Positions 23,260 to 47,499 are shown, numbered from the whole stretch's first letter. The stretch is 63,313 bases of DNA, filler included, from Basidioascus undulatus (GCA_000826855.1; 4 parts of 4 records of this genome joined end to end with filler, not necessarily neighbours in it), one strand, 5' to 3'. Notes: a model not told the origin generated them from the sequence alone. Translations and numbers: made by a program.

Positions 23260-26200
23260 TCACCACGCAGTCCCGACCTCAACTAAACATCTCCGCGCCA
23301 GCTCCTTCACGCTCAAACGCTCGCCCGCCACCTTGTCCTTCTCCCCGTTTTCAACCGCGTTTTCTGCCGAAAGCGGTCCCGCTTTCGGCAGAGAACGGCG
23401 GCGCCAGGACTGGGAGGTCGGTTGCGAAGGTGCAGGAGCGACCGGCGCGGTCGTAGGCAAGACGAGAAGCTCCGTGAAGAGGCGGTAGGCGTGGAAGAGA
23501 TGGGCGACCGGCGAGCGCGAAACGACGTTCCTGATCTGCATGTGCGCAGGCGCGGTGACGTCGAGAGCTACAAAAAAGGAACAGAATGAGCACATCTATG
23601 CAATGCGTAATTTGGTGGGCTACGACGCACGAGAAGGGTTGAGCGCCTGCCCCGAGGGATTATCCGAGAACGCCGCATGCAGTGTTCCAGGATACAGCCG
23701 GAGCGCGTACAGCTTTCGCAGGACGTAGTGCAGCTCCTCCTCGCGCACCCTGGCCAGACCAGCGTTAACTAAGATTCACGCCGAAAATGGAAACTAAGAC
23801 TCACCGAGGGAATGGCATTTTGCCCCTGAGCGGGGCTTCTGCGACGTATGCCGACAGCACGCTCGTGCATCTCTCCAGCAAAGCTGGTAGACACAACGCT
23901 GCCACGCGCCGCCGGGGCGGTTCTTGATCTGCGGACAGCGATCATCCTGTCAGCTGAAACCAAGGCCCGTAAAGAACAAACGCAGGTACCTGCCGCCGCG
24001 TCTGAGCATACTGCGAACAGCAGATCAAAGCACCAGTACGCGAAGCGTTCTCGAGGCGCCTCGACGAGCGGGGCGACGCTGCCGTTGACGCCATCGGCGT
24101 GCATGTCGGGGTCGTGGACGTACGGGCGGCTCGCGCGTTGCAGAACCGTCGCGAGCTGAACGACGAGGTCGTCGGGAATGGCTGTGTTGCCGAGTCGGGG
24201 GAAGATGTCCGCCTCGAGAGTGGCGAGAACGGCGAGGTCGAAGTCCTCCTCGGCGGCTTGGTCGGACAAGGGGAATGCTTGAACAGGTGAACTAGAGACA
24301 ATTGGCAGTCAGCGCGAGAGAAGGCGGACAACCGCTGACGTTGGCGGAGCTTACCAGTCGGCCTGAAGGTTTCCTCGGAAGACATCGACGATCTGCCGCC
24401 AGATGGCCTCGAATTGCTCAGCTGGCAGGCCTGGTTATATCTGTCAGCAACGGGCGTGGCTGGAGTACCAGAGCCGGTCTGCGCACCTCGCTCCATGGTG
24501 TCAAGGACCTGAACGGCGTCGCGTACGAGCTGGATGAAGTTGAGGGTCGCGGTCTTCCACAGCGGTGGGTCATCGCCGAACTTGCTCGCGGGCGGGACGT
24601 CGTACTTGAGCTTCATCGGGATGCCGTACGCCTATCCAGCCATCGCCGATGTGTCAGTATTCAGCACAGACGTTTCACTGTGCAAAGACCATACGCACCC
24701 CGAGCATCTTCTCGAGTGCCCCGCTAGAGACCACCTCCCGATCGCCCTTGTGCTTCCTGAACAGCTCGACCACTCGAGGCATCGCGTCCTTGCAGAGCGC
24801 GACGTACGTGACTCGGCGGGGGGGGGTCTTGGCCGTTCCCCCACCGGGAACGGACACAGTCGTCCCGTCCGTGTAGTCGAAAGCGCCGAGGAAGGGGAGC
24901 GTGCCAAATTCAGCAAGGTCGGCCAGGACGAGGGCAGACGCGCCGGGCGGGGAGGAGAGGTCGACAGACATGACGACGTCAACGACGGCAGTTTGCAGCG
25001 GTGTCTAAAAGAGCGGTCAACCCAAGGGACGTGAGCTGGAGCCGGGCGTATCTCGGTGGAACAGAGACGCACCATGACGTCCACGTCAGGCCGGTAGTCG
25101 CGCGAGAGCGGGTAGGTGAGCAAGCCCTTGAGGACCTTAAGCATGCGCTCTATCCTGCGGAGCTCCCACTTCGCTCCCGCAACGGCGTGGATGGGCCGGA
25201 CAACGTCAACGAGCGCGCAGAGGTTCTCCTGCGTGTACGGCTCAGCCCTCGCGCCGTGCTCGCTTGTTGCCGGTGTCGCCGCCGCTGCGCCGAGCACCGC
25301 CTCGCCCATGTCGTCCCATGTCTTCCACGCGCGCTCCCACGGCTCGTCACCGACCGCCTTGCCGGCGCTGAGGACCTTGCCGAGCGCCTGTAGTGCAGAC
25401 GTCGCGAGCGCGCGGCTCTCGTTCGAGAACGTCGCTGCGACGTGGCGGAGGAAGCGGTCCCAGAGCGCGGGGAACGAGGATAGGTGGACGAGCTTGGACG
25501 CGAGGTAGGCGTGCAGAACGGTCGCGACCGAGTGGAGCGTGAGCGTCTTGGAGTCATCCCAGCTCGCAGCGGCGCTGGGCGGCGGGAGGGGTTCGGAGGT
25601 CGGCTGCGGGTGGATGACAGGCGAGGGGGTCGACGCGGTTTTGGAACCCGCGTCGAGCTGGTCCAGAAGCGGGAAGACAATCTTCCAGACGACGTCGTTC
25701 CATGCGTGCTCGTCGAGCGACGCGCCGTACAGGTCGATCGAGCGGAAGAGCGTCTGGATCGCCCCGTTGCGGACCTCGGGGCGCGGGTCCTCCGCGAGCG
25801 CGCGCAGCCGGTCGAGCAGCATCATCCACAGCTGCGTGAAGCGCCGTTCGTTCGCGGCGTCCTCCTTGCGGCGAGCCTGGAGGTAGTCGCTGACGTTCCA
25901 GAGCCTGCATTCGCAACCACGGTAAGCAAGTCGGTCATTTCAGCCTCGTCGGCGGACGTACAAATGCGAAGCCGTCAAGCAGATGTTGAGGTCGTCCGGC
26001 TGGTGCCCAAAGTCCGTTAACGTCGAGATGCAGAGCTCGAGCTCGTCCGGCGAGAGCGCGGACAAGAAGTCAGTGCAGACGAGGTTAAGGCAAGCGAATG
26101 CGACGCGGACGAGATTCGGGTTCCTGCTCGGCCTTTGCGCAGGGCCGAGCGACGTCGGGCGACTCTTTGTTGGCGTCGACATAGACGTACGCGGCTCCGA

Positions 26201-29200
26201 CGACGTCGGCGCCGTGTCGCCCGCCGTAGACCCCTCGCTCTCGCCCACTTCCTCCGCGATCGACCACGTCTTGCCGTTGCGCGAAGCGGACACGGGTGCG
26301 CACGCGGCGCGGAGGATCTCGAAGATTGATTCCCAGCCGCCGACGAACGCGTGCCCTGCGGACTCGAGGACCTTGAACAGCGTCTGGAGCGCCTTCTCGC
26401 GGATCTGCGCCTCTGCGCTCGTCCACTGCCGCGGGGCCAGCTCGCGGGGGGCGACCTGCTCGAGCAGCGCTTCGAGCACTCGCCGCTGCACGCGTGCTTG
26501 CAGCTCGGGCGCGCTCGTCGCGTTGCGCGGCGCGACGGCGAGGAGCTCGTTCAGGACGTCTGCGGCTTGTATACGGATCGCTTGCGGCCCGGAAACGTGG
26601 GCGATGACAGAGAGGAGATGTCGGGTGACGACGTTCCAGGCCTAACAGGTAAGCGAATGTCAGTCAGTCGTCTGCTCTTGTGCAGAAGATGAAATGCGCA
26701 GCACGCACAGCGTCTGGGTCGCGGTATATCAACCGGTGGAGGTTAAGCTGCGCGACGGTCCCGATCTTGCTGATCCCGAACGACGTCTCGCCAGAGCGCT
26801 GCATGTCCCAACCCACTCTCAGCCTCTTCCCTCTTCGCCCACACACTGCCACCTCATCCCCAACTCACCAGCGTCCGAATGACCGAGATCCCGCTCGCGC
26901 GTCTGCGATGCGGGGGCGGTGCCGCCACACCGGGGTCGGGGCTGACGGGCGTGCCCGCCCCCTCGTGCAACTCCTCCCCGTCCTCGGACATGCGCATGTC
27001 GACCATCTCCCCGCTGAGCCTGCACAGCGCGCCGACAAAGCTCCGGAACGCGGCGTCGTCGAGGCTCTTGCTCGCCTCGAACAGGCGCGCAATCCCCGCC
27101 TGGATCGCGTCGACGTCCAGGTCCGCGAGGAGCGCCGGTCGCCGGCGGGCTGCAGAGTCGGAGGACGACGTTGCCGCCGCTGCGGCTGCTGCGCTGGACG
27201 CCGCCGATGCGACGCGCTTGGCTGAGGTGTTGGAGGACGCGCCTGCGCCTGAGCTTGGGTTCGAGACGACGCGCCGCTGGGTGGACGCGGCGCGTGCGCG
27301 CGCGCGGAGGACAAAGTCTGCGTTTTGCAGCGCCTCGAGGACCTGGAACCACGAGGGGCCGAGGTTGCCCGCGAGGTGGTGCGCGACGGCGAGGAGGCAT
27401 CTCAGGCACGCGAGGTTTCGTTCCGAGAGGCCCGGCGGGCCCGCGCCGCTGCCGCTGCTGCCGGCAGCCATGGCAGCAAGACCGCCGAGGCTCTCGACGG
27501 AGAGCATGGCAGGCGAGCGCGGGGTCTGGGGCGGCGCGTCCGACCAACTCGCGATGGCCGCTACGACCCCCGAGGGGATGGCCGCGCGGCAGAGGGTGGC
27601 GAGGAATGCGTCGCGCGGGGTGGACAAGTCCAGGGCGCCGCAGACCTGCGCGAAGGACTGGAGCGCGTGCAGCGCAGAGGCAAAGAGCTCGTCGTCGAGG
27701 TTGGTGGAGAGGAAGAAGGAGAGGCCGGCGAGGAGCGCGGGCCAGCCGGCCGAGGCCATGGCGTGCACTGTGCGCGCGGGGTCGTCGGAAGGGAGGGAGG
27801 AGAGGTCAAGGGATGGAGAGGCCCGCACGACGGGCTCGCCTGCTGCACGCGGGCGCGCGGCGGCGGCGGAGGTGTAGAGCGGGAGGACGAGCGAGGCGAA
27901 ACCTTCGCAGAGGGAGGTGAGGCATTGGAGGGCGAGGAGGGCGGGGTAGGTCTCTGGGATGGAGGGCGCTTCCGCTTTGTCGCGCTGGTCGATGCACTGG
28001 AGTTTCATCGCGTTCCCGACGCTCAGTCCCGCCTCCTCAGCGCCCATCATCCCCGCGACGCCGCTCGCCGCGGCGCTCGCGACGCCGCCGACCATAGCGG
28101 CCATCTCGCCCATGTAGCTGAACGCGTGGTGGTCGGACGCGGAGGGGGACGCCGACGGCGGGGACACGCCGACGCCGTGCATCTGCGTGCCGACGCCCAG
28201 TAGCGACGCCTTTTCCGTCGCGATCCGGTTGAGGGCCGCGACCAGGGAGGCGAAGACATCCGAGGCGGAGGGGGAGGCGTCGTACGAGGTGTAGACTGTG
28301 CGCATCAGGACGGCGTCCGAGCAGAGCCTATCGCACCACCACCACACAGTCAGCATTGCACATTCCCACTAAAACTTTGAGGGTGTAAACGCACCCTCGC
28401 GAAATCTCCATCGCCAGCACGCGCACCCACCCGGGCAGGTGCCGCCCGCCCTCGTCCGCGGACTCGCCGTTGATGAAGCGCACGATGAGCTGCCAGAACA
28501 CCTCGCCCTCGGCCATGAGCTCAGCGGAGAACTGCTTGAGGAGGAGGAAGACGACGCGCGTGAGGCGCAGCGTCGTCGGGAACGCGGGCGGCTCGGCGAG
28601 CGCGCGGAGCAGGAGCGGGCAGAGGTTCGCCTGCAGGAGGTTGAGGAGGTGGGGGTGCTGCTCAGGTAAAATTGAGTCAATCTCATCAGCCTCGAAGCAA
28701 AGTTGAAAGTGGGGTAGAGGAGACGCACCCTCCGGAACAGGACGTAGTGGTTTGTCAACGCGGACTCGATCAGCTCGAGGTCGAACGTCCGCTGGAGGGC
28801 GGTGAGCTTGAGGAAAGTCGGGGGCTGCACGGCCGGGGGGGAGACACACAGCGCGCACAGGTCCTGGAAGAGGAGGTGCGCGTCACGCGCGGCGGGGCCA
28901 ACGGCGAAGGACGACCCGTCCGGCAGGTCGATAAAGGTTGACGGTTGGGCGTTGGACGAGTCTGATGTACGCGACTGACTTAGTGCGTCATTCACGGGGG
29001 GAAGGTGAAAGGTGGAAGTGGCAGGGTCACCTTCCCCTGCTTCGTGTGCCCGATCCGAACGCTTGTCTTCCTCTGACACGCGGTCGAAGACATTCAGCAC
29101 AAGCTGCATGAGCGTCGCGCTCGCTGTGCTCGAGACAACTGCGATCTTGGACTCTTGCAGGCGGAAGCAGAGGAGGAGGCACTGTCAATAATGCACAGTC

Positions 29201-29899
29201 AGCAGGGTGGCTCTGACGCATGGCGGGCCAGAAGGGGAAAGAAGCACCTCCGCCAGCTCGTCCCCGTGTATGGCAGGGACGTTGGAGACGAGGGAGAGGA
29301 GCGTCTGCGGGATTGGATTGTATCAGCTTCCACGGGAAAGGACTGGGAGAGTAAAATGGCACCTGTAGGATCTTGAGCTGGATCTCCACCCCCTGCGCGA
29401 GCACCTCGCGCATGATGCTGATCACCTCCGGTATTGCGCCCTGCCCATCCGGGCCCTCTTCAGCATGCCCCATCCACAGGATACCAGGGGAGATAGGACG
29501 CACCTCAGGAACCGCCCGGAGCATGACCAGACGCTGCAGGGAGCCCAAGCCGAGGGCAATGACTTTGGCAGTCTTGGTATGGCACGCGAGGAAGACGGGC
29601 TGGAGGAGGTCGTGCGCTGTTTTCCCATCTACAATGTTTTCCTCCAAGTCGTCAGTTTAACCGCGGGCCCTTCCTACCGTGTAGGTATATGCGCACCGAG
29701 AGACCCCACAGACGGGTTGGTGCGCAGCACAGTGAGCGCCTGGTCCACCGCCTGCACGCAGAGCGGAGGTCAGCTGCAGAAGCAGGGAGGGAGCTCGAGG
29801 GGCTGGATGGAGACGCACCTCGCGCACTTCGGGGTGCTTGCGCTTCGTCTCCGCCGCGAGGGAGGTGTACTCGGCCGTGAGGAAGCTCAGGCTGGACAT
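23260..29899 (-). CDS. MON2: MON2 (Arf-GEF-like endosome/Golgi trafficking scaffold), multi-exon
   Basis: SLAAETKRKHPEVRE, VEIQLKILQ, KLQCIDQRDKAEAPSIPETY, TPRDAFLATLCRAAIP, LSERNLACLR, DPRPEVRNGAIQTLFR, MKLKYDVP, RERFAYWCFDLLF. Confidence 0.93.
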
Positions 29900-31784: not shown

Positions 31785-33855
31785 GGCGAGGTGAGTCCCC
31801 CCCCCCGCCCGCCCCAATACCACGCCTTACGCTGGATGGTGCTGACGAGATATCCGGCGCCTCCAGCCCAACCATGAGTGGTGTGACGCTTGCGGCGGTG
31901 AAGGCCGCGTCGTGATGTGTGACGGATGCCCGAACTCGTTCCATCCTGCCTGTCTCGAACCGCCGCTCGACGTCGGCGAGCTATCCGACGAGGCCTGGTT
32001 CTGTCGGACGTGCCAGAACGAGCGGGTTCGTTTGCGTCTCGTCGATGAAGCCTCTGGTGGCGGCTGACAAGGGCCCCGCGCAATTCAGAATCCACCACCG
32101 AGGCCCGGCAAGGGCATGTTCGACGGGCTGCTGCACCATGTCCAGGTCGAGAACCCGAAGAGCTTCCGGTTGCCAGAGGAAATTCGCACTTTCTTCCAAG
32201 GAGGTCCGTCCGTGGTCTCTTCGTAGGGCGTAGAGCGCACCGGAGCTGACGTGTTTTGTGCGTAGTGGAAACGGCGCCCAACGGTTCGTACCTCGCGTCT
32301 ATCGACACGAAGCCACCCAAGTTCGAGTGCGTCTTACCTCGCATTCTGCCCAGTCCTCTTGAACTCACGCGAGCTAGCCCCACAGCCGTTCCGGCATCGT
32401 CATCGAGCGCGATCCATACCCTCTGCGCGACCGCCACGGCGCGTCCGTCCACTGCTACCGCTGTGGCGGGTCGGCTGCACCTCCGACCGCCGCTCGGGGC
32501 GAGGTTCCGCGGCGCGCTTCCGTCGCGGCCACGACTGCGATGGGGACGACTGGGTGGAGGAAGATGGCGTCGTGCGACTATTGCTCGCTGCACTGGCATC
32601 TCGACTGCGTGACGCCGCCTCTCAGCCAGGTGCCGCCGAACACGCGCAAGTGGATGTGCCCGAACCACGCGGAGCACGCGATGGTGCGTTCCTATTTCAC
32701 TGCATCCTGCCCTAAGCACGTGCTCAACTGCTCGCGTTGCAGCGCAAGCCCCGTATTCCGCGCACCAAGACGACGACGATCGAGGTCAAGGACCGCGGTC
32801 GACGCAACAACGGCCTCGTGGACGTCGTCTCGGAGGACAAGGCGGAGATCGACCTGAACGACATTCCGCTCGAGGAGATCGTCATGGACAGCCGGCGGTT
32901 CCGCGTGCCGGAGAAGGTCATCATGTTGGACTTTTGGGACAAGCTGGCACAGCGACGGCCGAGCGAACGGTGCGTTGGGATCTGACTCTCGTGTTGCACC
33001 TGGGCGCTAATTTCGCATCTCGCTCGCAGACCGCGTCTTCCGCCGCCCAGCGCCGCCCCCCAAGCACCTCTCTTCGATGATGCACTCGCCATTGCGGCCA
33101 TCGACGGTCTACTCAACCTTCGTAGCCTCGCCCCGCAATTGGCTCTCCCTCCCGACGTCGCTATGGCCTCTGTGCCCCAATCCTCCCCGTCTCCTTCGGT
33201 GAGCCACCCAAGGTCTTTCATCCTATCTACGCTGCTGACGTAGAGACGTTCAGGATACCCAGTTCCCTCCGCCCGCACCGCCGGACGATGCCAGCTTGTG
33301 CAAGCTGGACCATCGCACGCTCGAGCCTGTCGGTCCTGTTCACTGGCCCGAGGGGATCGTCGGTTTAGAAACTGATACTTTTTGCCACAGATCCCGATTG
33401 TCCAGGAGCATTCCTCGCTCAAGATTCGACTGCACACCTCGTCCGCTGCGAAAGACGCGGCGCGTCGCATGTCGACGTCTCCCACGAAACCGTCCGACCC
33501 TCTGTCTTCCGCTCCACCGCTGCCCCTCTCTACCCTACCCACACGGACCCTTCCTCTTCGCCGCAGTCGCAGCGCACGCCTGAGCGCCTCGCCGTTCGAG
33601 GAGCCGCCTGCGCCCGCCGCGCCCGCCGCGCCGCCTCCAGGCTCGCCTGTTGGCTCCAGCGGCAGCTCGCCCCTCAGCAGCGCTCCGTCTCTAGACTCCC
33701 CAGAAGCCACGACGCTCCCCCTCCCTGCTCTGCCTAACGGCTCAGCACCGCCAGCGGCCAACCTCTCGCCGGAGGAGATCCAGCAGTTGCGCGCCGTCCG
33801 CGAGTTGATACGGGCAAAGGGAGAGCAGGCGCTGTTGGACTTCCTGCGTTCGTGA
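31785..33855 (+). CDS. Double PHD-finger protein, Rco1/Cph1-like, 5' truncated
   Basis: NHEWCDACGGEGRVVMCDGCPNSFHPACLEPP..WFC; NPKSFRLPEEIRTFFQGV; CDYCSLHWHLDCVTPPL..KWMCPNHA; RFRVPEKVIMLDF. Confidence 0.88.
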
Positions 33856-34148: not shown

Positions 34149-36893
34149 CTACTTCTTCCAGGCCCCATCTTGAACCTCCTTGACCAACCCGAGCAACCTT
34201 CCCCCCGCCACTTTGAAATCCTCTATCCCGACCCAGACCTGGGCGCTCACCCGGATCCAAAGCTTCCCGGCGTGCAGAAAGACAGGCGTGAAGAAGTCGG
34301 ACTCCAACATGCGTCGCTCAACGTACGCCTTCTGCGCGAGCATGGTCGACTCGTCTGCGGGAGCGAGCGGAAGACGGATGTTGACCTGTACGAAAGGAAA
34401 CCGAATTCCGCCATGTTCAGATGTGTTCTGGACAAAGCTTGTGAAAGGAACAGACCATGTTCGCGGTCAGCTCGCCAGCGTCGTTGTCCATGACGTCGGT
34501 ATCGAGGATCTGGGCAAGCAGCGAGCCGCCCTCGACGGCGAGGTTGTGGCAGTACTCAGTGATGCGTTCCTCGCCGCCCAGCTTCGCTCGGAAGTCGAGA
34601 GCTGGACAATGCAGCGCGCACGTTTGTCAGCGAGAGATGGACTTCGGGCGACCAGTGACTACGCACCAGCACCGATCGACAGAGCAGGCGACCAGTCCAT
34701 CGTGCCCGTCCAGGAATGGTTCAGCACGAAGTAGTCGTCCGGCAACTGTGTACCAGCAGGAGGAGGGAACCGCGACGAAATGTAGGTGTGATTCGTCGGT
34801 ATGCTCGAGCGGATGACGTGCTGGTTGCTGAAAGAAGGGTCTTGGTGTTTAGCGCTGCGGCTGAAAAACGGAACGTCGAACTTGCAACGGCCTCACCGCT
34901 TAGGGACTTGAAGCACCGCGACGCCGCGATGAGCGAGAAGCCACTTGTGGCAGTTCTGTCGTCGGAGTTCTCGCGTCAGTTTAAAATGAAGCTGCAATGT
35001 CAAGAATGCTTGATAGTGCACGTACGGAAATCCAAAAGTCGGGGTTGTCCCGCGCCAAATTGACTGGCTGCTGCCCAATCTCGTGCGCAGCGTCGACGAG
35101 GCTGAGGCACTCGTACTTGCGGCAGATCTCCACCATTTGTGGCCACGGGAAACGCACGCCGGGGTTGGATGCGATCTGCCGTTACATTCCTGTTCAATCA
35201 GCCACTCTGAATCCTGCTTGAGCTGCTGATACGGCCGCACGGCATCAATCATCGCGATCCTAGGGCGCTTCGACGCCTTGAGCGCGGCTTCGAAAGCCTC
35301 GAGAATCGAGACATGCGTGCAGGGGAAGGTGAGCGGAATGATGGTCAGCTTGACCTCCGGGTTCCGGTCTGCGATGTACTTGAGTGTCTGCCAACAGCTG
35401 CACAGAGATAGATGGCAGCATCAGCGGAATAATCAGGATGCGTTCGTGACCGCTCAGAGACGCACGCGTTGTAGGAAGTGGAGAACCCAAACAGCTCGTC
35501 GCCTTCCTCGTAGACTAGATTGCGGAGGACCTCGTTCACGCCTTGCGTCGCGTTCTGACGCGATCTCTCATGGATAAGTCATCCGCGTACGGCAGGTATT
35601 GGCTTTGAACGCTTACCGGCACGATGACCAGCTCGTTCATGTCACACTTGACGAGCTCTGCTAGGCGGCGGCGGATGTCGACAAGCAGGGGCATGTACGT
35701 GGACCGGAGGAAGCGATCCGGGTTCGCCTCAACCTGATCTTGCAGCGCGCGGAAGGCGGCCATCACCGCGCGAGGACATGATCCGTAGGAGCCTGCGGCG
35801 CGGAGGTCAGCCGAGCACCGAAAGCGGAGCAAGTTGGAAGCTCGAACTCGTACCGTGGTTGAGGTTAACTGTTCCGCAACTTCCAGTCAACGAAAGATAC
35901 GAGAAAATGCTGCGCAACTCACTGTAATCCGGGTCAAAGAAGAACTCCGACCTCAAGCTCCTGCCCAGCTTCGGCCAACCCTCCGCATGCTTTTCCACGA
36001 CCGGCACGCCGTGCTCGATCTTGCCTGCAAAACATCCCTCCTTAAGACCAATCAGCTATCCAGGAAAACACTGCGTTCCTTTTTTCACATCATGCAGGGC
36101 CGTACCGTTCATCGCGCGCCTTCGGTCAACCTCGCCGTATTCCTCCTGTCCGTCAGTCCAGCGGTGGAGCTTCTCGCGCACGAAGTCGGTGTAGCTCCAC
36201 AGGCTAGGCTCGAGACGCTCGATGCCGGCCGTCCAGATGTAGATGTTCGCTTTCGCGTTGGAGAGGGAGGCGAGGTGGAGCGAAGAGAGGGGTGTGACAG
36301 GGCATGGGGACCAGCTCGAAGAGGCCGGGACAGGAGGGTTGAGGAGCGTGACGTCGACGACGGTGCGGACGTACTCTGCAAGCCCACAGTCAGGTCAGCT
36401 CTGCGTCTGCTGAACGTCGTCCGAGTAAACTGGACTCACCGTCTCCTTCAAAGATGTCGAGCAACCTCAACTCCTCCTTGTTCAATCCCGTCACCAGCGC
36501 GCCCTTGACCGAGCTCTCTTCGGCGTCAAGCTCACGTCCGAGCAACCGAGCGCCGTCCGCTTTGGACACCACGGCCGGATAGTCGGCATCCCGAACGTGA
36601 TGCCTACTGTGATCGAGCAGGATCGCGTCCTGCACCTTCAGGTGCGAGAGCGAAGAGGGGCCAATGACACGGGCCTGCCAGCGAGATGGAGACGCATGTG
36701 AATGAAAGCCAGGATAATAAACGTCAGTGGAAGAAGAGGTGTACGAGGATGGCAGGTACGACGAGCGTGCCGTACTGCCAGCGAGCGATAAGGGATGGAG
36801 AGACGACGTCAGCGAGCCGCCCCGAGAACAAGGGATTTCGGTGGTATGCAAGCTCACGAAGAAGGCAGTCTCTTCGGCGAACATAGTGTGCAT
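34149..36893 (-). CDS. Fusion of N-terminal AIG2-like/gamma-glutamylcyclotransferase domain and C-terminal class-V PLP enzyme (Egt2-like C-S lyase)
   Basis: GGCT part: AFFYGTL, DYPAVV, VKGALVTGL..LLDIFEGDEY, NIYIW, WSYTDFVREKL. Intron 36105-36025 joins MNG|KIEHG in frame to LNHGSYGSCP, NATQGVN, DAAHEIGQ, PDFWISNCHKWL (PLP Lys, ~34941-34955), WTGTMDW, GGEERITEYCH, WIRVSAQVW. Both domains are confident; the joint is inferred from splice signals. Confidence 0.85.
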
Positions 36894-37259: not shown

Positions 37260-38784
37260 TTAGTCGAAGAGACCGAAGCCCATGTCGTCGTCGGACTCCC
37301 TGGGAAGGGGGAAGTGTCAGCACTGAGGCAAGGGGTCGCGAAATGCAACACGAGGAGAACGCACTCCTCCTTCTCGGCCTCCTTGGCGGCAGGGGCCTCC
37401 TCGGCGGCGGCACCGCCTGCGGCAGCAGCGGGGGCAGCAGCGACGGCGAAGGCCGAGGGGTCGGCGAGGAAGGCCTGGACGCACGGAACAGGATCGTGTC
37501 AGTACGAAGTCCGGGACAGCGTGGAAGATCGGGTGAGTGCGGTGGCCATCAGGCTCAAAAATGGTCCTCGAAGCAAAAGCTCGGAATTTTCAGTGTGTGT
37601 TTGTGAAACATCGTTTGACCCAACGCGTGTCCCCTAAGATCCCGAAAGAGTGCGAGATGCGAGAACGCACCTTGGCCTTGGCGGCGAACTCGAAGTCGAC
37701 GTCGACCTCGAGGGCGACGGCGAGGACGTTCTTGTACGAGTTGACGAGGGAGTGGGGAACGGACGCGATCGTCGGGTAGTTGAGCGCGAGCCTGTGGCCG
37801 GGAATGGCGTCAGCGTGCGGCGGCAAGCAGAAGAATGCCATCTGTGGGAACTCACGAGATGGCGGCGACGGCCTTGACACCGGACAGGAAGCGCTCAATG
37901 AGGGTGTCCTCGGAGACGTCAAGGACAGACGGCGAGAAGATGTTGCCGTTGTCATAGACTGCGGAAGCGGGAGCTCGTCAGCTGCATGAAACCAAGCCGC
38001 TGCAAAAAGAGAATTGACGCACTCTGCTCCACAGTCATACCGTAGGTGAACGGACTGAGGACGAAGTTGAATCTCAGCACTCTATCACAGCGCTGGGTGT
38101 GTTCACGAGAAACATACGAGATGTTGAGCATGTTGAGGAGGGTTGCCTCGGAGGTACCGACACGGGTACCGGCGTGGACGACCTGGACCTCGGTGACGAT
38201 TTCGATCGTACCACGGGCGATCTTGGTGGGGATACCAAGAGCCTGGAAGAAGGAGGTCTTGCCGGGCTCCATGCCGGTGTTGCCGGCCGGGACGAAGACG
38301 TCCTTGGGGGCGTAGGCACCGGCACGGGCGGGCGCGGCGACCTTGTTGGCGACGATGATGTCGCGGACGTCCTTCAGGTCACCCGAGGTGAAGACGAAGC
38401 CGATGTTGCCCTTGACGTGCGGGAGCAGACGCTCGAACTGCGGGTTCTCCGAGATGAAGATCCGGAGCGCACGGCGGACCATGGTGTTCTTGCCCATGAG
38501 GACGACACCCTTGCCACGGAGAGCCTACACCAGAATCCGCCCGTCAACAGATCGCACCGCAGCGGATACACCGCAGTTCACGCACGCCACGGATCTGGTG
38601 CATCTGGTTCGACGAGACGTTGTCAACGTTGACAATGAAGATCGAGGCTGTCCGATCCCATACCGCGTTCAGCTCGGCCGCTTGCCTACTCCTCGAACTC
38701 CCTTCAGATCCACTCACGGTACGTCTCGATGTACTCCTGGAGCTTGGCGAAGTACGCCTCCTTCTCGCTGCGGTTGAGACCCAT
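37260..38784 (-). CDS. RPP0: 60S acidic ribosomal protein P0 (uL10)
   Basis: [63 protein letters not shown]-terminal [11 protein letters not shown]; probable 5'-UTR intron ending just before the ATG. Confidence 0.98.
37544..37620 (-). ncRNA. Candidate intronic box C/D snoRNA
   Basis: Inside a 196-nt RPP0 intron (37475-37670): GGUCA/UGGCC terminal stem, degenerate C box ACGAUGU, D' CUGA, C'-like CGAGGA, D CUGA; 77 nt. Confidence 0.35.
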
Positions 38785-40117: not shown

Positions 40118-41430
40118 ATGTCGTCGCTCTGCACCTCGTACTCCCGCCCACGTAAGCCTCCAATTTCACCTTCTAGGGCTGCGACAGTTACTGACCTGTT
40201 GGTGCGCTCGCAGGCTTCGTCTGCAACGACTACCTGCACTCTTTCCCTCCCCACTCCTGCCCTCGTGGGCCCACCTGTCGCTTCATTCATCCCACCACTC
40301 CTTCCGCTCTCCTGGAGAAGCAGGCCGCCCAGGCTGTCCCGTACGCACAGTGTGAGTCGCGCAGCTCACTAATCTTTTGCGGGGTCGAGGCTCAGGAGGG
40401 GAAGAGGACAGCGCAACTGTGCAATCGTTTCTTGAAGGGGATCTGCGAGGACGGGGACGAGTGCACGTTCGCGCACGACCGCGACGTGAGGGAGGGTCAG
40501 CAGAGGGGTGGGATGAGGCTGCGCGATGCCAGGCTCGAGGAAGAGGGTGGGTTCGTCACTTGAATATCGGAACGGGGGAAAACGGATCTTTGAGCAGTTT
40601 ACTGACATTAATGTACCCCAAAGACACCTTCTTGTCCTCTGCCTCATCCACTTCGACGCCCACCACCCCGACTTCACCGACGAGCACGGTCCGTCTTCCC
40701 CTCTTCCACCTAGCCTACAGGCTGTCCTGCACTTTTACTGATGTCATTTTTCTTACTTTTATCTCTATTCAGGAAGCATCAAGCTCGCCGCCCTCCACCT
40801 TCTCGGTGCTCCTCTCTCAAGTGCACACGCCCGAGAACGCGCACATCGCGCACCAGCTCAAACGTCGCAAGCCTCGCGGTCCGTCCATCTCTGCAGACCA
40901 TTTCATAAAACACACTGCGCACTGAAAGGGTGAGGGAAGGTAGAGTTTGTCTGCCGCTACTACCTCATCAGCCCGAGCAAGTGCCGCTGGGGCGACGACT
41001 GTCATGATCTGCACCCGGTCGACCCTGCGGCTCTTCAGGTACTTCTTCATGCCTGTCAATATTCCGCTCCCTAGATTTCAAACTGTTGTGATAACTTTCC
41101 CTTATAGCGCACTGCCGCCCTCCAGCAGCAAGTCCACCGTGGCTCATGCTACGTCCAAAGTATGTCTTCTACTCCATCTCCCTCCCCTTCCCCAACGACT
41201 ACGTCGGTCTGACACGTCTGACCGCGCACCCAGACCGCAACTGCACCTTCTTCCAGCGCGGCTCCTGCGACAAGCCAGACTGTCTCTTCATCCACCAGCG
41301 GGACGTGCGCGATCCCCGGTCGGCGCCTCCGCCTGCTGAGGAAGGGCAGGGCGGGCCGGGCTGGGTCAGGAGGAGGCCGAGGGTCGACGTGGGCCAGTTG
41401 TCGAAGCTCCTCAGTGAGACGAGGGTTTGA
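40118..41430 (+). CDS. Multi-CCCH zinc-finger protein; exon structure and start uncertain
   Basis: CNDYLHSFPPHSCPRGPTCRFIH, CNRFLKGICEDGDECTFAH, CRYYLISPSKCRWGDDCHDLH, CTFFQRGSCDKPDCLFIH. Confidence 0.7.
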
Positions 41431-45111: not shown

Positions 45112-47499
45112 ATGTCGACCTACCACCAGTCCGACGCGGCATCGCACCGCTCGGTGAGCCTCTCGCGCAAGGGCTCCACTGTCTCCCGCTCGGCGTCCCT
45201 CATCAAGAAGGTCAGTCCCGTTTGTTGTAGAAGAGTCGTGGGTGGAAGAGAGACTGACGAAAGGGTTCATTTCTGGCAGAACACAGCCCCTCAAGAGCTC
45301 AAGCCCAGCGACATCCTCCTTGACCGGTACGTACTGCTCAACCGCGGCTGGAAGGGCTCCCGGAATTGAAGAGGAACACTCTGGGTGGTAGCTTCAATGC
45401 TTGGAAAACCATCACCAAGAACCTCATCGCCTACTTCGAGGGCATCGCCGATATCGAGTCCAACACCGCGCGGGAGCTCACCAAGCTTGGCGGCGTGATC
45501 CAGGTTCCCTTCAAGGAGGGGAACCAATTCCTGGGCGAGGGCGGCCTGCAGGACATCTACTACAACATTCGTGCGTCTTCTTTTCCTTGTCGCTATGATA
45601 GACAGCTGACGTGATTGCGCGTCCACAGGCGACAAGACCCGCGTCATCGCCGACCACCACGCGAACCTGGCCAAGACGGTTGACGGCTCGATTGTGCAGC
45701 ACCTGCAGAAGCTCCGCGCGGAGATTAAGGCGCACATCAAGAACATTCAGAACGACACGGGCAAGCTCGCGACGACCGTCGCGCGCGAACGCGAGTACTC
45801 GACGCGCACCATCTCGGACCTCGCACGCGCGATCACGACGCTCAAGAACACGCCGACGAGCGTGCACGCGCGCGAGGACCCGTTCGTCATGAACCTCACC
45901 GTCGCGCTCCAGCTGCAGAAGCAGGTCAACGAGGAGAACGCGCTGCAGAAGAGCATCATCATCATGCAGCAGGTGCGTAGCCTCAACGCGTCTTGCATCC
46001 TACGCCATATGGCTCACACGTGTTGTGTTTCTTGCAGAACTCTGCGCACTTCGAGGAGGGGATCATTCGCTCGATCCAGTCGGCGTGGTCTACGTTCGAC
46101 GAGTGGCAGTCGCGCATGTCCGCGGAGGTGCAGGAGACCTGGCGGCACATGGGCGCGTTGATGTCGAGCCTCGAGCCCGACTCGGAGTGGGTCGCTTTCT
46201 CCGCGAAGTCGGACCACCTGCTCGACCCCGAGACGCCCTTGTGAGTCATTCAGAGTCATCTGCCCGAGCGATGGTATACTGAAGCCAGGACTCGATGTAC
46301 AGGCGCAACCCTCAACTCATCGACTACCCCGGCAAGGACGACCCGAGCGTCATCCCCGTCCACGTCGGCTGGCTGGAGCGCAAGAAGCGCTTCACAAAGA
46401 CTTACAAGGTTCGTCTGCAATCGTGACATTCGCGTCGACGCGCTTGGCTGAGCTTGCGCCGCTGCTTGCAGGAGAGTTACTACGTCCTCACCCCTGCCGG
46501 CTACCTGGTGAGTCATGGCTTCTTTGGGACTTTGCGACGATTGCTGACTGACGGCGTGATATTAGCACGAGTTCAACTCCGCGGACCCGACGCAGCAGGG
46601 CAGCCCGAACCTCTCGCTCTTCCTGCCCAACTGCACTCTCGGCCCGCCTTCCTCTTCCCGTCTCTCCAAGTCGCACAAGTGTTCGTGGGCTCATGTTTGC
46701 TTTGCCGCTTCCGATGCTAAATCAGTCTTCCGATCGCTCCAGTTCATATTGAGGGCCACAAGCAGACGCACGGCGTCGGCAAGCTCTCGATCTCGCGCGA
46801 GCACTCGTACACGTTCCGCGCGCGCAGCCACGAGGACATGACCGAGTGGTGGAACGACCTCCGCATGCTCGTCTCGCGCTACCTCGTCGCGTCCGAGACG
46901 ATGGACCGCTCCGGCCCCGTCGCGGCCGCCGTCCGCTCCGCGGGCTACCAGTCCGAGGAGGAAGAGGAGGAGGAGGACGGCAGCTCGGTCGAGGAGGAGG
47001 ACGAGGAGGACGAGGAGGACGCCATCCACCACCAGCACGAGCACGACTACGACCAGGAGCACGGCGTCGCTGCGCCGTCGGCCACGCACGAGCACCACGA
47101 GGAGGCCCCGGCGTACAGCCAGCCCAGCCCGGCGAGTGGTATCCAGATGGGCGCGAATGGCTACCCTGTGCATTGTCATTGTTACTCACGCATCTTGCGT
47201 GTCTTGCTGATGCGTCGGGCGTTGAACAGCTCGAGAAGAAGGGCGGTCCCAGCGGCGTGCCGTCCACGGGCGAGCCGTCTTCCGGTCCCGGCGTTCAGCT
47301 CAGCCTGAGCAAGAAGGAGCAGGTTAGTGATCCCTCAACCTTCATCCAAGTTGCGCGTGGCCGTTGCTGACAGTCGTGCCCGACGCTTTTCAGAAGGCGC
47401 CCGAGCAGCCAGTCGGTGAGCCCGGTCCCGCGCCTCCTTCGAGTCTTCCGGTGCAGGCCCGCAGGACGCACTGTCGGCCCGGCGCTCTCATCCTGCCGG
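45112..47499 (+). CDS. SLM1/2-like BAR-PH domain protein, 3' truncated
   Basis: ILLDRFNAWKTITKNLIAYF, helical region HLQKLRAEIKAHIKNIQND, DPFVMN; PH domain GWLERKKRFTKTYKESYYVLTPAGYLHEF, YTFRARSHEDMTEWW. Confidence 0.88.

Follow-up and report, generated by a model that had tools for sequence, protein, structure and literature searches.

Does a locus of Basidioascus undulatus (GCA_000826855.1), in which the reading frame of an AIG2-like domain of gamma-glutamylcyclotransferase (GGCT) fold runs into that of a class-V PLP enzyme, specify one protein, and what would two such domains do on a single chain? The window analysed was a stretch of 63,313 nucleotides, filler included, joined from four parts of four records of this genome that are not necessarily neighbours in it. 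The question touches on ergothioneine synthesis, as the PLP enzyme resembles Egt2, which the published accounts consulted treat as having a single domain and as one of the two enzymes of the fungal pathway. No mention of a cyclotransferase domain on such a lyase was found in the papers retrieved. The explanation considered likely as a whole is that of a single 14-exon gene for a two-domain protein, one half AIG2-like and the other an Egt2-type lyase, which belongs to a vertically inherited family of fused proteins.

Gene model and domain junction

The exon model built from the sequence places one gene on the minus strand (36893..34149), divided into 14 exons by 13 introns (54-83 nt, all GT..AG), and its spliced coding sequence of 1863 nt specifies a protein of 620 amino acids (Table 1). 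The limits given in an earlier note on this DNA coincide with the start and stop codons of the model. Intron 1 interrupts the FFYGTL motif (FF / YGTL), while the AIG2/GGACT frame of exon 4 is free of stops and closes with ...EVDRRRAMN and a further G, in phase 1, before a GTACGG donor at 36105. The sequence CTGAT (36055..36051) lies 27 nt upstream of the acceptor of intron 4, the 3' end of which is TTTTGCAG, at 36025, and exon 5 (from 36024) carries the frame onward into ...DPDY / INLNHGSYG, DAAH and NCHKW. The splice signals named in the earlier note (GTACGG donor, CTGAT, TTGCAG acceptor) were all recovered on reading the minus strand, as was its frame leading without a stop up to the donor and then into a class-V PLP enzyme; its remark that there is no intergenic space was also correct, the halves being only 81 nt apart. 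Three more of the gene's donors, GTACAC, GTACGA and GTACGT, are similar to the one at the junction.

Comparison with homologs was consistent with this model. The 620-aa product gave a single BLASTP HSP spanning the junction with 43 of 185 collected proteins, at 36-45% identity, and global alignments to the homologs P0022 and P0130 had zero indels at all 13 exon junctions. The residues that follow the splice, G-K-I, agree with 'MNGKITP' of Mixia and with 'MEGKIV' of a JGI protein. Splicing of intron 4 is thus predicted from homology. Within exons 4-5, no in-frame Met other than M189 (exon 4) precedes the essential block NLNHGSYG, and splicing of this intron would therefore be required for a working lyase in any scenario. 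The locus is very probably one fused gene with one protein product and, for the window alone, this amounts to a solid gene annotation.

Table 1. Predicted features of the fused gene, numbered from the first letter of the window
Feature	Position	Strand	Evidence
Whole fused coding region	34149..36893	-	Single-HSP end-to-end alignment to fused homologs; no indels at junctions
Exon 1 (M1..F12); ATG at 36893 directly after in-frame TAA 36896-36894	36858..36893	-	Model
Exon 2 (Y13..L22); YGTL motif 36774..36763	36745..36774	-	Y, G, T and L each invariant in fused proteins (44/44)
Exon 3, AIG2-like/GGACT core; catalytic-type Glu98 (FEGDEY) 36449..36447	36440..36674	-	Pfam GGACT E=0.0017, 19.3 bits, under cut-off; Glu in 43/44
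Exon 4, C-terminal part of AIG2-like domain; end motif EVDRRRAMN(G); M189 codon 36112..36110	36106..36375	-	Motif common to stand-alone Postia and Botryobasidium proteins
Intron 4 (domain junction), 81 nt, phase 1, GTACGG..TTTTGCAG, in frame, TAG at 36058..36056	36025..36105	-	Sequence and model
Exon 5, linker (N-terminal extension of Egt2 itself), as far as ...FFFDPDY	35923..36024	-	Aligned stretch of P0022 matches N. crassa Egt2 chain from residue 11
Intron 5, 54 nt, in frame, without stop, just before exon 6		-	Model
Exon 6, 15-nt micro-exon (INLNH)	35854..35868	-	NLNHGSYG block gapless against homologs
Exon 7 (GSYG...VIVP); Y232 (= NcEgt2 F48), R259 (= R75)	35617..35792	-	Model and alignment
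Exon 8 (NATQGVN...SYNA); A290/T291, Y316 (= NcEgt2 Y134)	35466..35554	-	Model and alignment
Exon 9	35241..35397	-	Model
Exon 10 (IASNPG...LVDAAH...DFWIS); S373, D398, H401	35026..35175	-	Pfam Aminotran_5 E=1.1e-5, 25.1 bits, over 21.5 cut-off
Exon 11 (NCHKW...); PLP-binding Lys424 34946..34944	34897..34955	-	Lys in 44/44
Exon 12; H453, W479, T482 (= NcEgt2 H276, F304, T307)	34667..34827	-	Model and alignment
Exon 13	34456..34601	-	Model
Exon 14 with TAG stop 34151..34149; Arg587 (= NcEgt2 R438) 34253..34251	34149..34385	-	Arg in 44/44

An ergothioneine gene cluster was also considered for the window and rejected: of the 218 ORFs of 110 aa or longer in the entire stretch, the 63 in 24.6-47.4 kb were scanned, and the neighbours proved to be genes for ribosomal P0, Mon2, PHD-finger, CCCH-finger and BAR-domain proteins.

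Distribution and age of the fusion

Fused orthologs, on the existence of which the earlier note had made its reading depend, proved to be abundant. Both PF06094 and PF00266 are present in 37 of 43 long relatives (352-1122 aa), and the fusion was found in at least 34 named Pucciniomycotina together with Wallemia, a Cryptococcus, Tulasnella, Auriculariales, Rhizoctonia and Clavulina. Exon 3 alone, used as a query, recovered P0001 and 145 relatives, and a Pfam re-scan of this ortholog placed Aminotran_5 (57.2 bits) and GGACT (44.3 bits) both over their cut-offs; exon 4 as a query returned 130 longer candidates, none of them at E<=0.001. Whether the AIG2/GGACT plus Aminotran_5 architecture had been catalogued for fungi was left undecided in the earlier note, and the same long relatives answer this: the architecture is already in databases, but without explanation, under names such as 'PLP-dependent transferase', 'Aminotransferase class V' and, once, 'hercynylcysteine S-oxide lyase'.

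The alignment and tree were restricted to 44 rows, and omit P0034 (960 aa, partial), P0056 (1420 aa), the partial P0040 and P0072, P0023 (476 aa) and P0005 (an intron-blind ORF). In this quick IQ-TREE reconstruction (SH-aLRT support, several long branches flagged), the gene tree roughly tracks species groups, and the window protein groups with Wallemia with a support of 98, a placement to be read with caution because of the flagged branches. Agaricales, Polyporales, Pucciniales and Tilletia have later stand-alone forms. The fusion is genuine and ancient and is common to many basidiomycetes. The window protein is a member of a family of fused proteins passed on vertically across the Basidiomycota, as judged by a tree that is only a quick one. 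Apparently larger fusions in Rhizoctonia, of 1420-1461 aa, are likely mis-joins with a BRCT/rad4 neighbour, the same species having a 647-aa model, and were discarded.

The two halves and their closest known relatives

By sequence, residues 1 to about 190 are assigned to an AIG2-like domain of gamma-glutamylcyclotransferase fold that retains the YGTL pocket and a catalytic-type glutamate, Glu98. The score of exon 3 against Pfam GGACT falls short of the cut-off of 22.8 bits, the exon being only part of the domain, while the window protein aligns across the whole of it to relatives carrying PF06094. The YGSL-type pocket motif, defined in a 2025 preprint by its conserved Tyr and Gly (10.1101/2025.01.15.633182), is kept as Y13-G14-T15-L16, and the Glu of FEGDEY aligns with that of EGneYeR in 2jqv and 2g0q. 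In the AF2 model of the fused ortholog P0022, the equivalent Glu94 is predicted inside helix 84-97, close to its C-terminal end, a location that broadly fits the catalytic Glu82 of human GGACT, which ends the helix that delimits the cavity, the equivalence being by family description only (preprint 10.1101/2025.01.15.633182).

Stand-alone fungal relatives, 15 of them combined into a profile, matched the Arabidopsis AIG2-like structures 2jqv (1.3e-13) and 2g0q (1e-12) in the PDB; exon 3 by itself retrieved only a pentapeptide-repeat protein (E=0.38), which was taken as chance. The match to these plant proteins (2JQV; At5g39720, 2G0Q) extends over the core as well as the C-terminal Y.W...W.FE.W part, with the Glu and a motif of the YG(T/S)L type common to both, but the plant proteins are stand-alone, of about 165-173 aa, whereas the fungal forms carry an extra C-terminal motif, EVDRRRxMxG, conserved also in stand-alone members such as that of Postia. 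The AIG2/AIG2-like branch belongs to the GGCT-like superfamily; the preprint calls the AIG2/AIG2-like family plant-specific and its molecular mode of action unclear (10.1101/2025.01.15.633182). The gamma-glutamylcyclotransferase domain of the earlier note was upheld as to fold and frame, the catalytic signatures of both halves being intact, and revised as to kinship, the closest relatives being the plant AIG2-like proteins.

Residues from about 205 to 620 are, in turn, assigned to a PLP C-S lyase of the Egt2 type. Exon 10 of the window exceeds the Aminotran_5 cut-off (Table 1), and P0022, which is 45% identical to the window protein, matched Neurospora crassa Egt2 with E=2.9e-84 over chain residues 11-481, followed by LolT (8dl5/9aza) at 4.5e-65 and by desulfurases at 1e-9 or weaker. 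Foldseek with the P0022 model ranked them in the same way, with Egt2 first (TM 0.90, 35% identity). N. crassa Egt2 (NcEgt2, a hercynylcysteine sulfoxide lyase; 5UTS, 5V12, 5V1X) is accordingly the best solved relative of this half, and is itself without an N-terminal GGCT-fold domain. The second-closest, the PLP-dependent Mannich cyclase LolT (8DL5; Foldseek 2.9e-40), scores under Egt2, differs in its chemistry and also has no such domain.

The active-site residues of NcEgt2, as given in PMC10805701, could be followed through the family. Its PLP-binding set (Lys247, Tyr134, Asp221, Asn244, His246, Thr307) is complete in the window protein as K424, Y316, D398, N421, H423 and T482, each kept in 43-44 of the 44 fused proteins. 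The contacts to the carboxylate and cysteine part, Arg438, Ser196 and Arg75, are kept as R587 (44/44), S373 (Ser in 36, Ala in 8) and R259 (Arg in 26, Lys in 15). Those to the histidine-betaine part, Phe48, His276 and Phe304, correspond to Y232, H453 and W479, of which H453 is identical and the other two are conservative aromatic replacements; the histidine-moiety contact His276 is a His in only 26 of the 44. Two positions were not kept: Gln224, which hydrogen-bonds to PLP and substrate, is His401 in the window protein (His 40/44, Gln 2/44), and Cys156, the proposed sulfenic acid trap, is Pro339 (Pro 37/44, Cys 0/44). Together with the Tyr and Trp replacements they distinguish most of the fused clade, the window protein included, from NcEgt2. 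Cys156 does not define activity, however, since MsEgtE is also without this Cys (PMC10805701).

The earlier assignment to class-V PLP C-S lyases of the Egt2 type is borne out by this intact catalytic signature and by the ranking of solved relatives. The lyase half probably functions as Egt2 and, going by homology and the conserved active-site residues, most likely splits hercynylcysteine sulfoxide into ergothioneine (via a sulfenic acid), pyruvate and ammonia. Rhodotorula and Sporobolomyces, both holders of the fused form, are listed among ergothioneine producers (PMC11993508).

As to how the halves are joined, the AF2 model of P0022 (pTM 0.70) has a low-confidence linker, with pLDDT block means of 43-71 over residues 141-190, and predicts no fixed interface between the two domains. 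This suggests a flexible tether between the AIG2-like domain and the lyase, formed by the N-terminal extension that stand-alone Egt2 itself possesses.

One member of the family appears to have been published already. The Rhodotorula toruloides ortholog P0015 (655 aa, PF06094 and PF00266) is 42% identical to the window protein over window residues 4-619 and includes EMS19535.1 of strain NP11, which lies two accession numbers before EMS19537.1 (= RHTO_04311). By consecutive accession numbering, P0015 appears to be RHTO_04309, the published 'RtEGT2' (PMC11089744). No mention of its extra domain was found in the excerpt of that paper, where support for RtEGT2 consists of co-overexpression with RtEGT1, with variable titres that were raised in some transformants, and not of an enzyme assay.

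Possible roles of the fused protein

The extra domain is conserved, and apparently catalytically intact, across the fused family. In the mechanism favoured here, it would strip the gamma-glutamyl group, as 5-oxoproline, from an S-conjugate or sulfoxide derived from gamma-Glu-Cys, and the lyase on the same polypeptide would then break the C-S bond. Such catalytic coupling of the two domains is offered tentatively, as a possibility that is rather less than probable. A wider reading would take the fusion as a 'Rosetta stone': AIG2-like GGCT-fold proteins would be unrecognised partners of Egt2-type C-S lyases, releasing 5-oxoproline from gamma-Glu-Cys sulfoxides or S-conjugates, and many basidiomycetes would run or proofread ergothioneine synthesis via a gamma-glutamyl intermediate, as a eukaryotic, convergent counterpart of mycobacterial EgtC and EgtE combined in a single chain. 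This is speculative and, in our view, unlikely. Were it true, it would give stand-alone fungal and plant AIG2-like proteins their first biochemical function. An active domain would mean that the ergothioneine or thiol metabolism of basidiomycetes includes a step or substrate not yet described; it would bear on the biochemistry of AIG2-like proteins and on strain engineering, as Rhodotorula is already being engineered with this gene. Even with an inert domain, the protein would be a clean case of domain fusion, and an ancient one.

The analogy with mycobacteria is functional only. There, the glutamyl group is taken off gamma-glutamyl-hercynylcysteine sulfoxide by EgtC before a PLP C-S lyase, EgtE, acts (PMC10805701), but the two are separate proteins, whereas the window gene specifies one polypeptide. 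EgtC is also described as a glutamine amidotransferase, not a GGCT-fold protein (PMC10805701). It would free glutamate by hydrolysis rather than 5-oxoproline. EgtE has less than 20% sequence similarity to NcEgt2 (PMC10805701). In gliotoxin synthesis the cyclotransferase GliK acts on an S-conjugate derived from glutathione, taking off its gamma-glutamyl groups ahead of thiol release, and deletion of gliK in Aspergillus fumigatus led to higher ergothioneine (PMC6923255); here too, GliK and the later C-S cleavage enzyme are separate proteins, of a secondary-metabolite cluster.

Rather than being a cyclotransferase, the N-terminal domain might be a module that serves Egt2 in binding, regulation, stabilisation or sorting, comparable to the GGCT-fold domains in Paulinella transit peptides. 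Published accounts agree with this in two respects: AIG2 and AIG2-like proteins are without an established biochemical mode of action (preprint 10.1101/2025.01.15.633182), and the fungal Egt1 of N. crassa uses cysteine, so that the canonical fungal route has no gamma-glutamyl intermediate and no need for deglutamylation (PMC11089744, PMC6923255). The predicted flexible tether, with no confident domain interface, is a further point on this side. However, the YGTL pocket is kept in all 44 fused proteins and the catalytic-type Glu in all but one, whereas non-catalytic GGCT-fold domains have lost that Glu, which is Tyr or Arg in crTP part 2 and Arg in the E. coli BtrG homolog 1xhs (preprint 10.1101/2025.01.15.633182). 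A purely non-catalytic role is conceivable, and we regard it as unlikely.

The proposed coupling could also serve something other than ergothioneine in the main, the fused enzyme acting on other gamma-glutamyl-cysteine S-conjugates or sulfoxides, from glutathione-conjugate breakdown or of the flavour-precursor type, and yielding free thiols or sulfenic acids. Gamma-glutamyl removal with later thiol release does recur, in the sulfur volatiles of Lentinula, through GGT and a C-S lyase (PMC11677154), and in gliotoxin synthesis, with GliK after GliG (PMC6923255). The C-S lyase of L. edodes is reported to act in ergothioneine synthesis as well (PMC11677154), and the enzyme class can therefore be promiscuous; the clade also differs from NcEgt2 in having His for Gln224 and in lacking Cys156. 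Yet among solved relatives Egt2 is the closest in sequence and in fold alike, ahead of LolT and cysteine desulfurases, and at its histidine-betaine contacts F48, H276 and F304 the window protein has the same residue or a conservative replacement. We know of no other Egt2 candidate in the fusion holders, which would also count against a main role outside ergothioneine. These fungi do make ergothioneine (PMC11993508), and a different principal substrate seems rather improbable.

Least likely is a reading with two products in place of the fusion or alongside it, in which retention of intron 4 would give a 206-aa AIG2-like protein, or an internal transcription start in exon 4 a lyase alone from M189 (MNGKIEHG...), the fusion being, in the strong form, a minor product or annotation artefact; it is judged quite improbable. 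The intron is in frame and its TAG would end the retention product, with a tail about as short as that of the stand-alone Postia protein, which stops soon past ...EVDRRRAMNG. The 464-aa P0219 begins exactly at the equivalent Met on five contigs of the R. mucilaginosa cluster, which makes a lyase-only form conceivable, and the N. crassa Egt2 alignment begins at roughly the same point. However, P0219 may derive merely from 5'-truncated contigs, and 'MNG', which the earlier note had named as a possible start of the lyase, was rejected in that role, as its Met sits in the AIG2-like family motif EVDRRRxMxG, present in stand-alone Postia, and is not Egt2's. On a Rhodotorula-like contig of 104,568 nt, the ORF P0005 passes from the AIG2-like domain through the linker to the lyase uninterrupted, without the junction intron found in the window gene; upstream of this run the ORF includes two 21-aa in-frame introns that were read through. 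Likewise, P0220, a 593-aa ORF on a contig of 2295 nt, spans the junction and matches residues 49-638 of R. mucilaginosa P0013 with 100% identity, and the long relatives annotated as fused come from records of several different sources. The sole 'stand-alone' Rhodotorula model, a 166-aa protein of R. graminis that could be taken as a sign of a split gene, is a faulty model, as its reading continues past FEGD into an intron.

Gene structure and the junction between the two domains

The annotation of the fused gene (36893..34149, minus strand) is firm. It comprises 14 exons and 13 introns, every intron being of the GT..AG type and 54-83 nt in length, and its coding sequence of 1863 nt specifies a protein of 620 aa, starting with an ATG at 36893 that is immediately preceded by an in-frame TAA, and ending with a TAG at 34151-34149. 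The 58% G+C and dense introns of the window suit a basidiomycete. The FFYGTL motif is joined only by splicing across intron 1, and a 15-nt micro-exon encodes NLNHG. The earlier note had described a GGCT-type domain spliced in frame to an Egt2-like lyase, and minus-strand reading confirmed this junction in its frame, GTACGG donor, CTGAT, acceptor and PLP-enzyme motifs (see the table). Exon 5 keeps the frame via a short linker that leads to NLNHGSYG, DAAH and NCHKW, and GTACNN donors are used by three further introns of the gene.

Features of the junction and of neighbouring genes in the window
Feature	Position	Strand	Details
Exon 4, 3' end	36106	-	...EVDRRRAMN + first base of Gly codon
Intron 4 (junction intron)	36105..36025, 81 nt	-	5' GTACGG, 3' TTTTGCAG
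CTGAT within intron 4	36055-36051	-	
Ribosomal stalk protein P0 (uL10), upstream neighbour	~37260-38524	-	Ribosomal_L10 + RL10P_insert domains, acidic tail
Mon2-like gene, exon fragments	24635-29656	-	DCB, HUS, Mon2_C domains
PHD-finger gene, convergent with 3' end of fused gene	32378-33855	+	
CCCH zinc-finger ORF, upstream of fused gene	40195-40560	+	
BAR_4-domain ORF, upstream of fused gene	45610-46158	+	

Splicing of intron 4 was judged by comparison with homologous proteins. With the spliced protein as query, a single BLASTP HSP spanned the junction for 43 of the 185 proteins compared (query start ≤43, query end ≥543, identity 36-45%), and global alignments with the Leucosporidium (P0022) and Wallemia (P0130) proteins were free of indels at all 13 exon junctions. 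Within exons 4-5, M189 (exon 4) is the sole in-frame Met 5' of the essential NLNHGSYG block, so that a functional lyase needs intron 4 to be removed.

The alternative, that the locus produces separate isoforms, could take two forms. Retention of intron 4, the length of which is a multiple of three and which carries an in-frame TAG, would give a 206-aa, AIG2-like-only protein with a tail about as short as those of the stand-alone homologs, and could let the gene switch between a fused and a stand-alone product, a prediction from the sequence. Initiation at M189 has a comparable case in P0219, a 464-aa ORF found on five contigs of the R. mucilaginosa cluster, which begins exactly at the conserved EVDRRRxMxG Met and is either a lyase-only short form or a 5'-truncated assembly. 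The EVDRRRxMxG motif, which contains M189, is a conserved feature at the C-terminal end of AIG2-like family members and also occurs in stand-alone proteins (Postia ...EVDRRRAMNG, then a short tail), hence this Met is by origin no Egt2 start codon, and its candidacy as the original start of Egt2 was rejected.

Fused forms in other fungi

Exon 3 as query recovered a 641-aa R. babjevae protein (P0001) carrying both PF06094 and PF00266. When the first 175 residues of this protein were used as a second query, with targets limited to 352-1122 aa, both domains were present in 37 of 43 matches, so the search for the AIG2/GGACT plus Aminotran_5 architecture proposed in the earlier note did return fused orthologs. 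All but two of the 37 came from 34 named Pucciniomycotina taxa, and the genera included Rhodotorula, Rhodosporidiobolus, Sporobolomyces, Leucosporidium, Microbotryum, Meredithblackwellia, Phenoliferia, Pseudohyphozyma and Mixia, together with two Microbotryomycetes. A HMMER scan of 1.84 billion representatives gave 145 relatives of exon 3; cluster names and alignments indicated further fused forms in Wallemia mellicola, Cryptococcus sp. DSM 104549, Tulasnella, Auriculariales sp., Rhizoctonia solani and Clavulina, and the AIG2-like domain alone (~200-230 aa) was seen in Lentinula, Cyathus, Amanita, Postia, Tilletia horrida and Cronartium. A quick tree search of 44 fused proteins, in which long branches were flagged, agreed broadly with taxonomic groups and placed the window protein with Wallemia (SH-aLRT 98).

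The two domains also lie in one reading frame in relatives. P0005, an intron-blind ORF on a 104,568-nt contig, shares 75% identity with P0001. At two places it holds 21 extra residues, each set being an in-frame intron that was translated, and one of the two places is FEGD|EY, the site of intron 3 of the window gene. Apart from these, its frame stays open across the AIG2-like domain, EVDRRR, the linker and ~120 lyase residues; the junction splice is unnecessary in this Rhodotorula-like lineage. Likewise, P0220 (593 aa) spans the junction in one ORF of a 2295-nt contig and matches residues 49-638 of the R. mucilaginosa protein (P0013) at 100% identity. The sequence comparisons show the fusion to be ancient and conserved.

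In the literature searched, the coverage of which left out most subscription journals, no description of an Egt2-AIG2-like fusion was found; none appeared among the 10 best-ranked of 42 items on ergothioneine and GGACT, judged by titles and abstract openings, and literature pairing Egt2 with gamma-glutamyl cyclotransferase and fusion concerned A. fumigatus GliK. The architecture is catalogued, yet functionally undescribed. In PMC11089744, RHTO_04309 is designated RtEGT2 and was overexpressed together with RtEGT1. The fused R. toruloides protein (P0015, 655 aa) includes EMS19535.1, two numbers before EMS19537.1 (RHTO_04311), and so by consecutive accession numbering P0015 appears to be RHTO_04309, the published RtEGT2.

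Function of the two halves and their possible coupling

The C-terminal half probably functions as an Egt2, by homology. P0022 matched N. crassa Egt2 (E=2.9e-84, chain residues 11-481) ahead of the LolT structures 8dl5/9aza (4.5e-65) and cysteine desulfurases, and Foldseek with its AlphaFold2 model (42 aligned sequences, pLDDT 89.8, pTM 0.70) placed Egt2 first (TM 0.90), with LolT (8dl5, 9aza) next. NcEgt2 active-site residues, taken from PMC10805701, were mapped via the P0022-Egt2 alignment (chain number = native number + 7), and K424, Y316, D398, N421, H423, T482, R587, S373, R259 and H453 are kept in the window protein. Phe48 and Phe304 of NcEgt2 are replaced by Y232 and W479. In the window protein, as in most of the clade, Gln224 is His (40 of 44 aligned fused proteins), and Cys156, proposed as a sulfenic acid trap, is Pro (37/44, with Cys in 0/44); because of these last two changes, the release step of the fused proteins may differ from the N. 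crassa model.

Searched as a profile, 15 stand-alone fungal relatives of the N-terminal half gave matches of 1e-13 to 1e-12 to Arabidopsis structures of the AIG2-like type. YGTL is kept in all 44 fused proteins and the FEG Glu in 43; according to a preprint (10.1101/2025.01.15.633182), a YGTL-type motif and a Glu make up the active site of the GGCT fold. The linker (residues 141-190 of the P0022 model), which is the counterpart of Egt2's own N-terminal extension, had block-mean pLDDT values of 43-71, and the model suggests a flexible tether.

The architecture suggests a model in which the AIG2-like domain would act on a sulfoxide or S-conjugate derived from gamma-Glu-Cys, taking off its gamma-glutamyl group in the form of 5-oxoproline, after which the lyase would cleave the deglutamylated product. 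The earlier interpretation is partly supported: a single gene with two intact domains, established here at the level of sequence, and the conserved fusion stood, and the lyase is a probable Egt2 by homology; gamma-Glu removal coupled to C-S lysis is a hypothesis. Counted against coupling are the use of cysteine by N. crassa Egt1 (PMC11089744, PMC6923255), the prediction of no fixed interdomain interface in the P0022 model, and, in the same preprint, AIG2-like proteins without known activity. The N-terminal domain may instead be a non-catalytic module, a reading to be weighed with its retained YGTL and Glu. That the fused protein serves other thiol-conjugate metabolism is a further alternative, to be set beside the ranking of Egt2 above LolT and the desulfurases. 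Beyond the window gene, the fusion opens a line of enquiry, accessible to experiment, into AIG2-like proteins and into how basidiomycetes make ergothioneine.

Neighbouring genes, introns and public gene models

Among 63 ORFs scanned (24.6-47.4 kb of the window), no Egt1 or glutathione-related gene was found. The uL10 stop lies ~365 nt ahead of the ATG of the fused gene, on the same strand. Intron 5 (35869-35922, minus strand) is 54 nt, in frame and stop-free, and is followed by the 15-nt micro-exon; if retained, it would add 18 residues directly before the NLNHGSYG block. The FEGD|EY intron is common to the window gene and the Rhodotorula-like yeasts compared (P0005, P0046), the latter being without the junction intron and the window gene without their GE|DYPAVV intron.

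Public models at the fused locus are sometimes wrong (P0045, P0056, P0195, P0214). The only apparent counter-example to the fusion, a 166-aa R. graminis model, was rejected as it reads into the intron after FEGD. Rhizoctonia models of 1420-1461 aa are merged with a BRCT/rad4 neighbour, and a 2253-aa R. toruloides model with an aldehyde dehydrogenase.
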